Source of the DNA: Prolixibacteraceae bacterium
GTDB lineage: Bacteria > Bacteroidota > Bacteroidia > Bacteroidales > Prolixibacteraceae
DNA length: 40,000 bases
Direction: 5' to 3'
NCBI GenBank assembly: GCA_963662675.2
Contig: CAXXHP010000004.1
Location: 510,094-550,093 of the forward strand
Shown here: positions 12,575 to 31,848 of the stretch, in pieces
Position numbering within the stretch: the first letter of the stretch is position 1
How the letters are laid out: each line of letters starts with the position of its first letter
The notes under the pieces: model-generated
The model's input: only the letters and a program-made list of their open reading frames with translations
Database searches by the model: none
What the model was told of the DNA's origin: nothing
Made by a program: the position numbers and the translations under genes

Positions 12575-13051
12575 ATGTCAAAAGCGCTAAACATAGATAA
12601 AGCAGAACTAACTGATTTAAAAGATATTTTAGATTTGCAAAAAGAAGCTTACAGTCAAGAAGCTGAGATTTACAATGATTTTGATATTCCACCAATGACC
12701 CAAAATATTGATTCATTAAAAATTGAGTGGCAAAATGGAACTGTAATAAAAGCTGAGAGAAACGGACAGATAATTGGTTCCGTAAGAGCCGAGTTGATTG
12801 ATGATGTTTGCAAAATCGGCAAACTGATTGTGAAGCCTGACTTTCAAAATCAGGGAATTGGTAAAAGGCTAATGACAGAAATAGAAAGATTATTCAATAC
12901 TTGTTCGACTTATGAATTATTTACTGGTGACAAGAGTGAGAAAAATTTGACACTTTATAGAAAATTGGGATACATAGATTTTAAAACGAAACAGATTGAT
13001 AATAACTTGAAATTAATATATTTACAGAAACAGAATAATGCCGTTGCCTAA
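12575..13051 (+). CDS. GNAT-family N-acetyltransferase (cassette 7, gene 2)
   Basis: 158 aa. Motif A VKPDFQNQGIGKRLM. The TAA stop (13049-13051) is formed at the R''/intron junction; the uninterrupted site GCCTAAC would give the same stop. Confidence 0.8.
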   Translation: MSKALNIDKAELTDLKDILDLQKEAYSQEAEIYNDFDIPPMTQNIDSLKIEWQNGTVIKAERNGQIIGSVRAELIDDVCKIGKLIVKPDFQNQGIGKRLMTEIERLFNTCSTYELFTGDKSEKNLTLYRKLGYIDFKTKQIDNNLKLIYLQKQNNAVA

Positions 13052-14993
13052 TCGAATAGCCCGCCCCGCTAGCAAATACTAGCAGGGAGAGGCTTTCACA
13101 CCACCATACGTACGGGTCTCGTATACGGCGGTTCGTTAAGTCATAGGAAACAAAACCGTACTTGGTTTTACTTGATTGTAGAGTTCCAGTAAAGAAACGT
13201 AACCACGCAATTTCAATCTATCAACCGTAATGGTAGTACCCAGAATTGGGCTTTGTGCAATTGCCCATCCACCCATTCTGGAACGACTCCATGCATAGGC
13301 TTGACCCTGTTCAACGCCCAAACGAATCAGGTTCTTCCTTTTTCGCTCAGGCTTTTTCCAGTGGTGCCAAATGCAATAGCGAAGTCGGTTCCGCAGCCAC
13401 CCATCCAGTTCAGCCAGCTTGTTTTGGATGCTTGCCATTCGGAAAGCATTAATCCATCCTCGCTGCACCTCGCCCAACTTTTCGATACGTTCATCAAAAC
13501 TCATGGGAGTGGTTTTTCGGGTGAGGACTTTTAGCTTTTGCTTCAAGCTCGTCCAACTCTTTTCGGATACAACCAGTTGATATTTGCCCCGTTCGCCTTT
13601 CTTATAAGTTGGCACAAAGCCAAATCCTAAGCAGGTGAAATGTACAGGTCTGCGGATGCCGCTTTTCTCCCAATTGATCGTTAGTTTCAACTTGTTTTTA
13701 AGAAACTTAAAAATGGTGTTGCCAACCTTTCGGGCTGTTGTCTTCGTTTTAACGTAAATGCTAAAATCGTCGGCATAGCGGACAAAACGCAAACCTTGCC
13801 TTTCCAGTTCCCTGTCCAGTTCGTGCAATACGATGTTGGACAGTAAAGGACTTAATGGGCTGCCCTGCGGAACTCCCTTTCTGCGTTTGACCAGTTTCCC
13901 GTTTATTTGTATCGGGGAACGCAGCCATTTGCGGATAAGGCGCAAGGTTTCGCGGCAGTTGATTTTGCGGTAAAGCAGTTGCAGCAGATAGCAATGGTCT
14001 ACTTCATCGAAAAAGGTTTTTAGGTCAATATCTACAATGTATTGAAACCCTTGGTTGATGTAAGCCTGTGCTTTTAGGACTGCCTGACCAACGCTCCTGT
14101 TGGGACGGAACCCAAAACTGGAGTCTGAAAACCCAAACTCGAAGCGTGCAGTAATTACTTGTAAAACCGCTTGTTGTAGCAGGCGGTCGGTTACGGTGGG
14201 AATACCGAGTAACCTTGTTTTCCCTTTTCCTTTTAGAATTTCCACTCCTAAAATGGCTTGTGGCAAATACTTTCCCGAACGAACCTTGGCTGTCAGTTCT
14301 TCCTTGTCAATAGACAGGAGTTCTGACAGTTTACATACGGGCATGCGGTCGACTCCTGCTGAACCGTGGTTCCGCTGGACTTTGTACATGGCCTGTAACA
14401 GGTTCTTTCGTGTTAGAATTTGATCAATCATTTTAGTTTCAATTCATTGTTTCCATGTCCCGCCTAACGCAAAGCTAGATCCTGCTCACGCAGAAAGCTT
14501 CTTTGCAGCATTTGGGACAACTTATCGTTCAGCCCTTCAGCTTTTCTGTGAGTCCTCTGCCTTTTCTATGACAGCTCGTTTCCAAAGCCTACTATGGCCT
14601 CTGCTGACTTCTCAACTGTCCTTGCGGAAAGTTGAGACCTCCCCAGGTAAGAGCATCTTCCTTCCTCCAATCACTGCTGGATCTACTACGGAACGATTTT
14701 GGTATTCGTTGGACGTTACAATGATGTGCTTGCTTATCCTCGTCTCGTAGCCTCGTATCCAATTTCTGTTCGTCAGTACCGGAGTTTGCCGGTTGGCTTC
14801 CTTCACTGCATACCTCACGGTAAACCAGCTTGCCACTTGCTAACGGTTCGAAGCGTTACCTCCGCCCGTAAGGGACTTACACCCTCTGGAATAATTTCAT
14901 GCTACACTTTATTGTTTAGTAAGAAAAAGTTGTACTTTACATTCTTTTTCAAACCTTTAATAAAGTGGGCACATGCTCATGCTGGGCACACAC
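13051..14993 (-). mobile_element. group II intron, class C-like, attC-inserted (copy 1, 1943 nt)
   Basis: Read on the minus strand. 5' end GTGTGTGCCC (complement of 14984-14993) and 3' end GGGCTATTCGAT (to 13051). Domain V at complement 13101-13131 (CCGCCGUAU-ACG-AGACC-CGU-AC-GUAUGGUGG: CGC triad, AC bulge). Domain VI at complement 13054-13097 with a bulged A (13057) 7 nt from the 3' end. RT ORF in domain IV. Boundaries are defined by where the six copies stop being identical (+/-1-2 nt). Confidence 0.9.
13136..14431 (-). CDS. group II intron reverse transcriptase/maturase (no endonuclease domain)
   Basis: 431 aa. RT blocks LLGIPTVTDRLLQQA, FGFRPNRS, DIDLKTFFDEV, GVPQGSPLSPLLSNI, RYADDFSIY (YADD), INWEKSGI. 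Maturase/X motif RGWINAF. No HNH/En domain follows. Confidence 0.95.
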   Translation of the reverse strand: MIDQILTRKNLLQAMYKVQRNHGSAGVDRMPVCKLSELLSIDKEELTAKVRSGKYLPQAILGVEILKGKGKTRLLGIPTVTDRLLQQAVLQVITARFEFGFSDSSFGFRPNRSVGQAVLKAQAYINQGFQYIVDIDLKTFFDEVDHCYLLQLLYRKINCRETLRLIRKWLRSPIQINGKLVKRRKGVPQGSPLSPLLSNIVLHELDRELERQGLRFVRYADDFSIYVKTKTTARKVGNTIFKFLKNKLKLTINWEKSGIRRPVHFTCLGFGFVPTYKKGERGKYQLVVSEKSWTSLKQKLKVLTRKTTPMSFDERIEKLGEVQRGWINAFRMASIQNKLAELDGWLRNRLRYCIWHHWKKPERKRKNLIRLGVEQGQAYAWSRSRMGGWAIAQSPILGTTITVDRLKLRGYVSLLELYNQVKPSTVLFPMT

Positions 14994-15117
14994 ACGCGGT
15001 AATAAGTAATTTGGCGGTAAGTGATTTGCGAAGGTTTGAGCTTTTAATTAGGTTTGGAGGAATTAATAAAGGTTGGAGTGGTAAAGTACCAAACTACTCA
15101 TACCGCCAACGTTAGCG
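14994..15117 (+). other. attC site 7, right part (left 7 nt at 13044-13050; split by intron copy 1)
   Basis: Rejoining TTGCCTA + ACGCGGTAATAAG... restores GTTGCCTAAC, the reverse complement of GTTAGGCAAC at 11840-11849. Arms gcggtaataagta / tactcataccgcc. R' GTTAGCG 15111-15117. About 131 bp when rejoined. Confidence 0.8.
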
Positions 15118-29812: not shown

Positions 29813-29826
29813 AGAACGAACGCCCA

Positions 29827-31848
29827 ATCGAATAGCCCGCCCCGCTAGCAAATACTAGCAGGGAGAGGCTTTCACACCACCATACGTACGCGAGCTATGC
29901 TCCTTCCTTTCGCTTTACTCAGGAACATATACGGCGGTTCGTTAAGTCATAGGAAACAAAACCGTACTTGGTTTTACTTGATTGTAGAGTTCCAGTAAAG
30001 AAACGTAACCACGCAATTTCAATCTATCAGCCGTAATGGTAGTACCCAGAATTGGGCTTTGTGCAATTGCCCATCCACCCATTCTGGAACGACTCCATGC
30101 ATAGGCTTGACCCTGTTCAACGCCCAAACGAATCAGGTTCTTCCTTTTTCGCTCAGGCTTTTTCCAGTGGTGCCAAATGCAATAGCGAAGTCGGTTCCGC
30201 AGCCACCCGTCCAGTTCAGCCAGCTTGTTTTGGATGCTTGCCATTCGGAAAGCATTAATCCATCCTCGCTGCACCTCGCCCAACTTTTCGATACGTTCAT
30301 CAAAACTCATGGGAGTGGTTTTTCGGGTGAGGACTTTTAGCTTTTGCTTCAAGCTCGTCCAACTCTTTTCGGATACAACCAGTTGATATTTGCCCCGTTC
30401 GCCTTTCTTATAAGTTGGCACAAAGCCAAATCCTAAGCAGGTGAAATGTACAGGTCTGCGGATGCCGCTTTTCTCCCAATTGATCGTTAGTTTCAACTTG
30501 TTTTTAAGAAACTTAAAAATGGTGTTGCCAACCTTTCGGGCTGTTGTCTTCGTTTTAACGTAAATGCTAAAATCGTCGGCATAGCGGACAAAACGCAAAC
30601 CTTGCCTTTCCAGTTCCCTGTCCAGTTCGTGCAATACGATGTTGGACAGTAAAGGACTTAATGGGCTGCCCTGCGGAACTCCCTTTCTGCGTTTGACCAG
30701 TTTCCCGTTTATTTGTATCGGGGAACGCAGCTATTTGCGGATAAGGCGCAAGGTTTCGCGGCAGTTGATTTTGCGGTAAAGCAGTTGCAGCAGATAGCAA
30801 TGGTCTACTTCATCGAAAAAGGTTTTTAGGTCAATATCTACAATGTATTGAAACCCTTGGTTGATGTAAGCCTGTGCTTTTAGGACTGCCTGACCAACGC
30901 TCCTGTTGGGACGGAACCCAAAACTGGAGTCTGAAAACCCAAACTCGAAGCGTGCAGTAATTACTTGTAAAACCGCTTGTTGTAGCAGGCGGTCGGTTAC
31001 GGTGGGAATACCGAGTAACCTTGTTTTCCCTTTTCCTTTTAGAATTTCCACTCCTAAAATGGCTTGTGGCAAATACTTTCCCGAACGAACCTTGGCTGTC
31101 AGTTCTTCCTTGTCAATAGACAGGAGTTCTGACAGTTTACATACGGGCATGCGGTCGACTCCTGCTGAACCGTGGTTCCGCTGGACTTTGTACATGGCCT
31201 GTAACAGGTTCTTTCGTGTTAGAATTTGATCAATCATTTTAGTTTCAATTCATTGTTTCCATGTCCCGCCTAACGCAAAGCTAGAATCGTAACCGATAGT
31301 TTCTTTGCAGCATTTGGGACAACGCATCGTTCAGCCCTTCAGCTTTTCTGTGAGTCCTCTGCCTTTTCGATGACAGCTCGTTTCCAAAGCCTACTATGGC
31401 TTCTGCTGACTTCTCAACTGTCCTTGCGGAAAGTTGAGACCTCCCCAGGTAAGAGCATCTTCCTTCCTCCAATCACTGCTGAATCTACTACAAAACGATT
31501 TTGGTATTCGTTGGACGTTACAATGATGTGCTTGCTTATCCGCGTTTCGTAGCCTCGTATCCCACCGCTTCGCTTTTCATTTCGTCAAATGTCCCCCGGA
31601 CATTTGGTTTTACTAACGTAAAACTTTACTCCATTCACTGTTCGTCAGTACCAGAGTTTGCCGGTTGGCTTCCTTCACTGCATACCTCACGGTAAACCAG
31701 CTTGCCACTTGCTAACGGTTCGAAGCGTTACCTCCGCCCGTAAGGGACTTACACCCTCTGGAATAATTTCATGCTACACTTTATTGTTTAGTAAGGAAAA
31801 GTTGTATTTTTCATTCTTTTAAAAACATTGAAAAAAGTGGGTACACAC
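29827..31848 (-). mobile_element. group II intron copy 6, decayed (about 2022 nt)
   Basis: Same 3' end and the domain V apex variant (29890-29927). Scattered substitutions, a ~75-nt replacement/insertion around 31562-31636, and a 17-nt deletion at the 5' end (gtgggtacacac versus gtgggcacatgctcatgctgggcacacac). Confidence 0.85.
29942..31237 (-). pseudogene. group II intron RT/maturase pseudogene
   Basis: TGG to TAG nonsense change (complement of 30731-30733; C to T at 30732 on the + strand) splits the ORF into 168-aa and 230-aa pieces. There are additional missense changes. Confidence 0.9.

Follow-up and report, generated by a model that had tools for sequence, protein, structure and literature searches.

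A class C group II intron in six attC-like sites of a cassette array in a Prolixibacteraceae bacterium

Insertion into attC sites is treated as a hallmark of one monophyletic, proteobacterial lineage of class C (IIC) group II introns. This lineage, the group IIC-attC introns (S.ma.I2, E.c.I7, Kl.pn.I1, Sh.ba.I2, G.s.I1 and N.e.I1; Quiroga 2008, Leon and Roy 2009-2010), combines a class C ribozyme and a reverse transcriptase (RT) without endonuclease domain with insertion at TTGT/T in the R'' box (PMC7923331), antisense to the cassette genes, and carries ACA in the loop of exon-binding site 1 (EBS1). It is defined by monophyly of the RT as well as by its target (PMC3001079), the monophyly corresponding to a node with 100% bootstrap support in Leon et al. 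2010; the hosts described for it belong to the Proteobacteria or to Methylomirabilis, and class C RTs from Bacteroides and Microscilla served as non-attC references. Here we analyze a stretch of 40,000 nt (the window) from a Prolixibacteraceae bacterium of the Bacteroidota (GenBank assembly GCA_963662675.2, contig CAXXHP010000004.1, positions 510,094 to 550,093), in which a tyrosine recombinase gene is followed by a cassette array with six copies of one class C intron. Our preferred reading, to which we assign a probability of about 0.8, is that of an autonomous Bacteroidota intron that inserted in place into attC-like sites and whose copies are mosaic. The kind of element and its target are known, and the mechanism is presumably shared; the intron lineage, the host array and the copy number per array differ from those described.

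The intron copies and their target

A repeat search returned six-copy families spanning 13.0-31.8 kb of the window, and the limits of the copies (I1 to I6, Table 1) were set by alignment with 150-nt flanks and by the conserved end motifs (GTGTG...TTCGAT on the minus strand). The six copies lie where the initial annotation had placed them, but its high-coordinate (5') ends were 2 nt too long (GTGTGTG). The 5' end is ambiguous because the exon itself ends in GT (GT/GTGTG), and we took GTGTG as the start since 48 of 53 distinct junctions in related introns read NTGT/GTGTGCCC, whereas in the remaining five the intron is preceded by the 3' end of another one (...GAT/). The flanks are unique to each copy, and the repetition is therefore due neither to chance nor to simple duplication. 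The introns are, as had been remarked, more GC-rich (46%) than the remainder of the array (33.5%).

Group II introns are six-domain ribozymes marked by 5' GUGYG, 3' AY, a catalytic triad in domain V (D5; CGC in many class C introns) and a bulged A in domain VI (D6). Here the ends are GUGUG and AU, and over its full length the 3'-terminal stretch of 83 nt aligns with Intron_gpII (RF00029, D5/D6) at 32.3 bits (E 5.5e-5, local search), a score below the Rfam gathering score of 40. Aligned in this way, D5 shows CGC instead of the consensus AGC, the 2-nt bulge typical of this domain and a short terminal loop, and the bulged A of D6 lies 7 nt from the 3' AU. All six copies matched group-II-D1D4-3 (RF02001) and D1D4-1 (RF01998), with 121-126 and 49.5 bits, respectively, in I1 to I5 and 49.2 and 48.1 bits in I6. 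The open reading frame (ORF) leaves only ~645 nt of non-coding intron and encodes RVT_1 and GIIM domains and no endonuclease domain; it scores 355.8 bits against NCBIfam TIGR04416 (cutoff 300). Its closest solved relatives are class C enzymes (GsI-IIC, 327 bits; E.r. IIC, 315 bits), whereas IIA/IIB RTs score far lower (LtrA, 116 bits; T.el4h, 104 bits). The unit is a class C group II intron, as the initial annotation had proposed from the same terminal and D5/D6 features, the missing endonuclease domain and the small non-ORF part. Its claim of five identical RT ORFs was borne out as well, the 1296-nt ORF having zero variable columns across I1 to I5.

All six introns are inserted between (T/G)TGT and T. 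On the top strand each splits a left box xxxxA/AC, which corresponds to GT/T of R'' on the bottom strand, and all six, as had been stated, are antisense to the cassette ORFs. This is the same target position as that of the group IIC-attC introns. The short intron-binding site 1 (IBS1, NTGT), the T that begins the 3' exon and the upstream hairpin are those of a class C intron; EBS3 was not located. The EBS1 loop, taken from its position in the Rfam model, is GCACAUCA, whose ACA pairs with the UGU that is invariant in the 5' exons, and genuine IIC-attC introns have GCACAAGA at the same model positions.

Table 1. Features of the array and its introns (window coordinates)
Feature	Position	Strand	Remarks
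tRNA gene	3439-3512
Tyrosine recombinase	4384-5517	plus	377 aa; upstream of cassettes, co-directional
Putative attI / start of cassette 1	5590-5620	plus	..CCCACTACACCTAC/GTTAGGTGGC
Unoccupied attC-like site, cassette 1	7043-7233	plus
Other unoccupied attC-like sites	8014-8146, 8629-8761, 10669-10799, 11289-11420, 21369-21500	plus
attC-like site, cassette 7	13046-15117	plus	131 nt without intron; split GCCTA/AC
Other split sites	15935-18004, 18777-20879, 22608-24680, 25872-27945	plus
Half-site holding I6	starts 29822	plus	R''-L'' only, no L'-R'
I1	13051-14991	minus	1941 nt; in attC of cassette 7; identical to I4; RF02001 125.7 bits, RF01998 49.5 bits, RF00029 32.3 bits
I2	15940-17880	minus	1941 nt; in attC of cassette 8; six substitutions, private or shared, at intron nt 34-92
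I3	18782-20752	minus	1971 nt; in attC of cassette 9; second D1 hairpin allele and 30-nt insertion in D5 terminal loop
I4	22613-24553	minus	1941 nt; in attC of cassette 11; identical to I1
I5	25877-27817	minus	1941 nt; in attC of cassette 12; D1 allele as in I3, short D5
I6	29827-31846	minus	2020 nt; in terminal half-attC of cassette 13
RT/maturase ORF	13136-14431	minus	431 aa; RVT_1 and GIIM, no endonuclease domain
Further RT ORFs	16025-17320, 18897-20192, 22698-23993, 25962-27257	minus	identical to 13136-14431
RT ORF of I6	29942-31237	minus	interrupted by one TGG to TAG change
Candidate -7 promoter motif TAGCTTTG, Bacteroidota type	14470-14477	minus (intron sense)	38 nt before RT ATG

Relatives were collected by scanning one genome per species (L-numbers are the labels of the retrieved loci). 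The scan returned 267 loci, and the best 77 (65-92% identity) come nearly all from Bacteroidota, including Draconibacterium, Prolixibacter, Marinifilum, Saccharicrinis, Sunxiuqinia and Brumimicrobium; no scanned locus is identical to a window copy, the best RT match being 90-92%. Among 52 distinct 5' junctions with enough flank, 47 are NTGT (TTGT 26, GTGT 11, ATGT 7, CTGT 3) and the other five end in ...GAT, and in four of these the 3' end of another intron was flagged immediately upstream; of the non-tandem junctions, 47/48 end in NTGT. The 3' exons begin with T except in L006 (C) and at tandem junctions (GTGTG). An R' box AACG[GT]T was found at 33/52 junctions, mostly 120-125 or 180-186 nt upstream, which corresponds to two site lengths, and the inverse 10-mer of GT plus exon occurs downstream in 15/49 3' exons as compared with 0 in shuffled controls. 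A basal, plasmid-borne Persicobacter member likewise lies inside an attC-like site, while about five junctions lack attC-like sequence (in L035 the intron follows a hairpin and TTTTGT). Targeting of these sites thus characterizes the clade as a whole. Arrays with several copies are frequent in it, relatives in Draconibacterium and Marinifilum being examples, and clusters occur in several closed genomes, among them OY781970.1 with three loci at 1.160-1.194 Mb and four at 1.575-1.608 Mb.

Some relatives depart from the complete, single form. The Marinifilum loci L024-L026 carry ORF-less copies of ~630 nt in which the 5' 500 nt are joined to the 3' 100 nt, and in L004, L014, L025, L038 and L055 introns stand head to tail, one starting directly after the ..CTCGAT of the other; tandem IIC-attC introns are already known from Shewanella. 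Near-identical introns of the Bacteroidota type also appeared on short contigs of metagenome-assembled genomes labeled as Bacillota, Pirellulales, Cloacimonadota, an archaeon, Victivallaceae and Methanosarcinales (L012, L031, L032, L041, L054, L070), some with attC-like flanks, and binning error is a more likely explanation for these than transfer. In the literature searched, no paper connected group II introns with cassette arrays of Bacteroidota; a survey lists Draconibacterium orientale among the genomes with relatively many group II introns and makes no mention of integrons (PMC8919778).

Placement among class C introns

Genuine IIC-attC references were found in a plasmid collection through the published 5' primer sequences. 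In blaIMP-4-qacG2-aac(6')-Ib4-catB3::intron-qacEdelta1 (L082) the intron occupies the catB3 attC and in aadA2::intron-cmlA6 (L087) the aadA2 attC; both are antisense, each after ..AATTGT. Enterobacterial plasmid matches (H31-H35, 41.7%) were rejected as references since they lie in an IncC backbone and not in an integron, and so were Photobacterium matches, which follow terminators or are not in an integron.

A neighbor-joining tree of 34 RTs (418 columns, 300 bootstraps) grouped the window RT with IIC RTs against three outgroups. A Bacteroidota clade and the classical IIC-attC clade, the latter sampled by three representatives, were each recovered in 300/300 bootstraps, and a split joining the two in 0/300, which leaves the window RT outside the IIC-attC clade in this tree. 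Its identity is 38-39% to classical IIC-attC RTs (L082, L087, L084) and 39-41% to gammaproteobacterial IIC RTs outside integrons, as compared with 43-47% to Firmicute IIC RTs of the terminator type and 62-92% to RTs from Bacteroidota. Given the low identity and the missing joint split, membership in the IIC-attC lineage is therefore unsupported, and the window RT belongs to a Bacteroidota-specific class C clade that appears to be distinct from it. The initial annotation had likened the intron to the IIC-attC introns of the S.ma.I2 type; the class C assignment, the attC setting, the target and the orientation hold, but a place of the RT in that lineage is not supported.

The features that would speak for a new member of the described lineage (S.ma.I2, Kl.pn, Sh.ba.I2, G.s.I1, N.e.I1), transferred into Bacteroidota, are the same TTGT/T target in the bottom-strand R'', the antisense orientation, the ACA of the EBS1 loop and the 5' end GTGTGCCCAGCATGAGCATG, which resembles the published GTGCGCCCAGCATGGGCGCG and GTACGCCCAGCATGGGCATG. 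The same 5' motif, however, is also found in the terminator-type IIC introns L080 and L086. Together with the higher identity to Firmicute and Bacteroidota RTs, the 0/300 bootstraps and the published host range, in which Bacteroidetes class C RTs figure as non-attC references, this makes such a transfer improbable.

Compared with the IIC-attC introns, the window intron thus shares the ribozyme class, the RT without endonuclease domain, the target, the orientation and the EBS1 motif, as well as the occasional insertion at non-attC hairpins or beside another intron (PMC3001079, PMC7923331). It differs in its separate RT clade, in its host, which is of the Bacteroidota and not of the Proteobacteria, and in its target sites, which are attC-like sequences of 125-190 nt in an array whose recombinase has no IntI domain. 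In motif scans it also showed no counterpart of the outward promoters of the sigma-70 type (TTGCCA-17-TTTAAT, nt 76-105); it contains an AT-rich hypervariable hairpin at nt 25-95 and optional insertions in D5 and domain I (D1), and reaches a copy number per array far above the single or double copies in the literature examined. In the RT comparison, the closest solved or plasmid-borne enzymes are those of terminator-targeting class C introns (B.h.I1, GsI-IIC, E.r. IIC; L080, L088-L090). These share the CGC triad, the short IBS1, the requirement for an upstream stem-loop and the absence of EBS2, and a few relatives of the window intron follow terminator-like hairpins (L035). In contrast to them, the window intron follows a recombination-site hairpin and NTGT, not a terminator and U-run, and lies antisense to its neighboring genes, not downstream of them in sense. 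The IS1111-attC elements (ISPa21, ISPst6) are different again, as they are DNA transposons with a DEDD transposase and not retroelements, and the window contains none.

The host array and its recombinase

Reading the intergenic sequences yielded a chain of 13 cassettes behind the tRNA and recombinase genes. The chain begins 87 nt past the recombinase stop, at ..ACACCTAC/GTTAGGTGGC, and GTTAGGTGGC is the exact inverse of the R'' box of cassette 1 (GCCACCTAAC, ~7040). All cassettes begin with GTTRRRYnn, and the left box (R'') of each is the exact inverse 9-10-mer of its own start, as in the pairs GTTAGGTGGC/GCCACCTAAC, GTTGGCGGTA/TACCGCCAAC and GTTATGTTTC/GAAACATAAC. Such a correspondence between the start of a cassette and its inverted R'' is how integron cassettes are classically recognized. 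Without introns the sites measure 129-133 nt (one 191) and are predicted to form imperfect hairpins; when 11 sites of the window and of Draconibacterium halophilum were aligned, 8 of the 18 consensus pairs showed compensatory changes. The introns occupy cassettes 7, 8, 9, 11, 12 and 13, six of the last seven as had been counted. The bottom-strand TTGT/T is still present in the unoccupied sites of cassettes 1, 4, 5, 6 and 10, and the array is therefore not saturated with introns as the initial annotation had it.

The recombinase combines an Xer/IntI-like catalytic core with an N-terminal extension of ~100 aa and has no IntI additional domain, which in integron integrases lies around patch III. 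VchIntIA is its best solved relative, in an alignment that skips IntIA residues 200-242, and against IntI1 about 42 residues (gaps of 31 and 11, including the ALER patch) are absent from the window protein and three homologs, all of which retain the catalytic residues. Its scores are 198.8 bits against TIGR02249, under the cutoff of 265, and 222.7 bits against NF040815, just over 220. The recombinase belongs to a family that is large in Prolixibacteraceae. In D. halophilum (CP048409; L097 10001-11122) a 54%-identical homolog heads seven cassettes with the same signature, the chain again starting 87 nt after the stop and the sites measuring 125-128 nt (one 186), and in Brumimicrobium (L074 6598-7269) a 53%-identical homolog has the same position, with the chain partly seen. 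The possibility that the enzyme serves solely as a tRNA-island integrase was rejected on the grounds that its homolog heads an identical cassette chain in D. halophilum.

The array has attC hairpins and the G/TT crossover of integrons, but its recombinase lacks the IntI domain and the extrahelical bases were not found on the bottom-strand L''/R'' arm. In minimum-free-energy folds and a comparison of the arms (for example of sites 22608-24680 and 25872-27945 without their introns), a bulged T and a longer spacer (GGTCAC versus TTT) map to the bottom-strand R'-L' arm, whereas in the aadA2 attC (L087) it is the L'' arm that contains the extra base. The asymmetry of the window sites, as modeled, thus looks mirrored relative to canonical attC. 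The host array is not a canonical integron. It resembles Spirochaetota-type integrons with co-directional ("inverted") integrase in the recombinase gene upstream of, and on the same strand as, the cassettes, in the promoter-poor cassettes of one or two genes, and in hairpin sites of the form RYYYAAC...GTTRRRY with crossover at G/TT. It differs from these in the missing IntI additional domain, in the extra base and longer spacer on the L'-R' and not the L''-R'' arm, and in whole 125-nt site types that are conserved between species. The Bacteroidetes integrons reported by IntegronFinder 2.0 comprised only In0 elements and a single complete integron, in Salinibacter, and arrays of the window type are not among these (PMC9024848); Bacteroidota arrays of this type seem not to have been recognized previously.

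Several features of the array may be added. Whole attC types of 125-190 nt, central parts included, are conserved between the window and D. halophilum (window 25872-27945 with L097 12585-12717; window 7043-7233 with L097 17665-17855), and several types are mixed inside one array. The window and related loci have attC sites in common, and no shared cassettes were found among them. Cassette 10 duplicates cassette 5 (20846-21500 and 10766-11420, 97% identical) and contains no intron; the boundaries of the duplication lie at GTT, with the crossover placed at the GTT of R'. This duplicated cassette of ~650 bp including its attC has no convincing ORF, and its two copies have different neighbors. Cassette 6 (~11395-11868) is odd in that its R'' (CGTTCGTTAAC) and R' (GTTAGGC) are ~270 nt apart, and a 115-aa minus-strand ORF (11415-11762) overlaps its site. 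The array is bounded by half-sites (5590-5612 and 31847-31870), with an L'-like GTCCCACTACACCTAC before the first GTT and an unpartnered R''-L'' half at the far end. The cassette genes include a GNAT acetyltransferase, a methyltransferase and an NmrA/AraC pair, together with proteins with PIN, HNH, FRG and AAA_21 (AbiEii-like) domains, and core genes for 2-oxoacid:ferredoxin oxidoreductase follow the last site.

History and mobility of the six copies

Pairwise comparison showed I1 and I4 to be identical over 1941 nt, up to both junctions, whereas I1 differs from I2 by 6 substitutions, from I5 by 9, from I3 by 14 and the 30-nt insertion, and from I6 by 41 substitutions and 121 gap columns. Variable sites among I1 to I5 are confined to intron nt 34-209 and 1871-1877, and every difference lies close to an end, at most ~210 nt from the 5' or ~75 nt from the 3' terminus. 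Three D1 alleles are present (I1/I4, I2 and I3/I5); four of the changes in I3/I5 compensate each other pairwise within one hairpin (ACGG..CCGT versus ATGC..GCAT), and both hairpin alleles are widespread in the family. As a rule, no part of a group II intron varies less than domain V. Here, I3 (18846-18886) and I6 (29891-29931) have the 30-nt D5 insertion in common, which is predicted to form a three-way junction. The same module is found in L037 and a 52-nt version in L042/L043, introns with ~72% protein identity and intact ORFs; across these sublineages its architecture is conserved. I6 had been called decayed, which applies to its ribozyme (deletions of 16 nt at the 5' end and of 4 nt, together with the D5 insertion and one of 70 nt in D1) but not to its ORF, which has merely 3 substitutions including the stop.

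Between I1 and I3, 9/137 positions differ in nt 73-209 (6.6%); elsewhere these two copies differ only in the D5-loop patch (nt 1871-1877 and the 30-nt insertion), and they agree completely over the intervening ~1,660 nt, which contain the ORF. Such divergence beside an identical core cannot have arisen from one master by mutation, and recombination or gene conversion between intron variants is required. The very recent local burst of the initial annotation is thus borne out in part: the cores are indeed identical, but the variation consists of old alleles and insertions near the ends. A very recent burst from a single master without any recombination would accord with the identity of I1 and I4 and with an ORF that is identical in five copies and has 3 differences in the sixth. 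We nevertheless give it little credence, as the I1/I3 differences are limited to nt 73-209 and the D5-loop patch, four of the D1 changes form compensatory pairs and both alleles have a long history in the family, introns only ~72% identical at the protein level also carry the D5 insertion, and three D1 alleles with two D5 forms are impossible from one master.

Either chimeric donors or several co-resident variants retrohomed, or older copies had their centers converted, and we consider both processes to have been active. Conversion of resident copies would agree with tracts that spare the junction-proximal ends, and retrohoming of chimeric donors with I1 being equal to I4 up to both junctions. 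The two are not exclusive. An extreme form, in which all six insertions are old and independent and owe their identity solely to gene conversion with no recent retrohoming, predicts internal conversion tracts and hence differences adjoining the exon junctions, as observed, and six direct repeats within 19 kb offer ample opportunity for conversion. This form does not sit well with I1 and I4 matching each other as far as both junctions, and the free TTGT/T sites and five intact ORFs make ongoing mobility equally plausible, so that we hold it to be unlikely although a serious contender.

Identical repeats of 1.9 kb are a classic source of assembly error, and one cassette of this array is truly duplicated (see above), which raises an assembly artifact or a segmental duplication of cassette-plus-intron blocks as a further explanation. 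However, each copy has its own attC type and its own cassette besides its unique flanks, the copies are separated by defined alleles, the duplicated cassette is intron-free, and closed long-read genomes of relatives have clusters too (OY781970.1, ~34 kb each). The unique flanks led us to dismiss this explanation, the probability of which is very small.

A mechanism for the insertions can be taken from work on IIC and IIC-attC introns (PMC4424553, PMC7923331, PMC3001079). The excised intron RNA together with the RT would reverse-splice into single-stranded DNA in which the bottom strand of the site is folded, with recognition of the stem-loop, of a 3-4 nt IBS1 (NTGT, pairing with ACA of the EBS1 loop) and of T as IBS3. 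This recognition would place the intron between GT and T of R'', antisense to the cassettes. As the RT lacks an endonuclease, cDNA synthesis is probably primed by host replication. An insert of 1.9 kb inside R'' would prevent folding of the recombination hairpin, so the insertions presumably occurred in place, all six after the cassettes had entered the array.

A TAGCTTTG motif is found at the same position in all six copies, with no -33 TTTG, and by sequence it is a candidate internal promoter. If it is active, a sense transcript from one copy would cross the antisense cassette and supply precursor RNA of the next copy, and such read-through might explain the local clustering. We scanned for promoters with the Bacteroidota -7 motif and sigma-70 models, which only approximate the promoter rules of the host; no TAnnTTTG was found on the outward strand of the introns, and sigma-70-like matches were not above shuffles. 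The initial annotation had predicted that each copy would insulate downstream cassettes. In the case of S.ma.I2, read-through is reduced and downstream expression cut by ~72%, which is partly offset by an outward promoter (PMC3001079). In the window, cassette transcripts would have to traverse an antisense intron of 1.9 kb at six points, six of the thirteen attC sites would be disabled, and six direct repeats of 1.9 kb would make the distal array prone to RecA-mediated deletion.

Several points weigh against an autonomous intron with mosaic copies. The D5/D6 match falls short of the gathering score, and the motif scans identified no promoter for a whole copy with its exons. The deep nodes of the neighbor-joining tree are weak (26-37%) and the three classical representatives are all of the Sh.ba.I2/Kl.pn type, a remote sister relationship to the deeper IIC-attC members G.s.I1 and N.e.I1 being possible. 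Furthermore, I3, with its branched D5, and I6, with its truncated 5' end, may be inactive, and identical cores alone could also be explained by a very recent burst from chimeric donors. A wider proposition combines several of the above elements, namely an unrecognized integron-like system of Bacteroidota (Prolixibacteraceae, Marinifilum, Brumimicrobium, Persicobacter and others) with an Xer-like recombinase and mirrored attC, an intron lineage independently convergent on GT/T and the ACA/UGU pairing, self-reinforcing clusters that leave tandem and ORF-less copies, and tolerance of a branched D5. Taken jointly, we put this forward as tentative, at somewhat less than an even chance.

If the Bacteroidota clade is indeed a second lineage that targets attC, the specificity either evolved twice or is much older than thought, and two independent solutions become available for comparison. 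The array is a natural case in which to study how retroelements may freeze, delete or rebuild cassette arrays, and bears on the cassette-genesis idea of Leon and Roy. A recombinase without the domain that defines integron integrases, which nevertheless heads cassettes with exact boundaries, merits a study of its own.

Two variable structures within the intron may finally be described. The AT-rich hairpin at intron nt 25-95 (e.g., 14897-14967) is hypervariable in relatives, with a conserved center (GTAAAATACAAATTTT in most of them), and occupies the place of P1out, the outward promoter of the classical introns. The 70-nt D1 insertion of I6 (~31520-31590) contains motifs of the D5 insertions (GAGUAAAG...CGAAG and the hairpin AAAUGUCCGGGGGACAUUU), the hairpin motif being present also in D1 of L040 at a nearby position, and judging from these motifs the D1 and D5 insertions of I6 may represent a small structured module that moves between intron loops.

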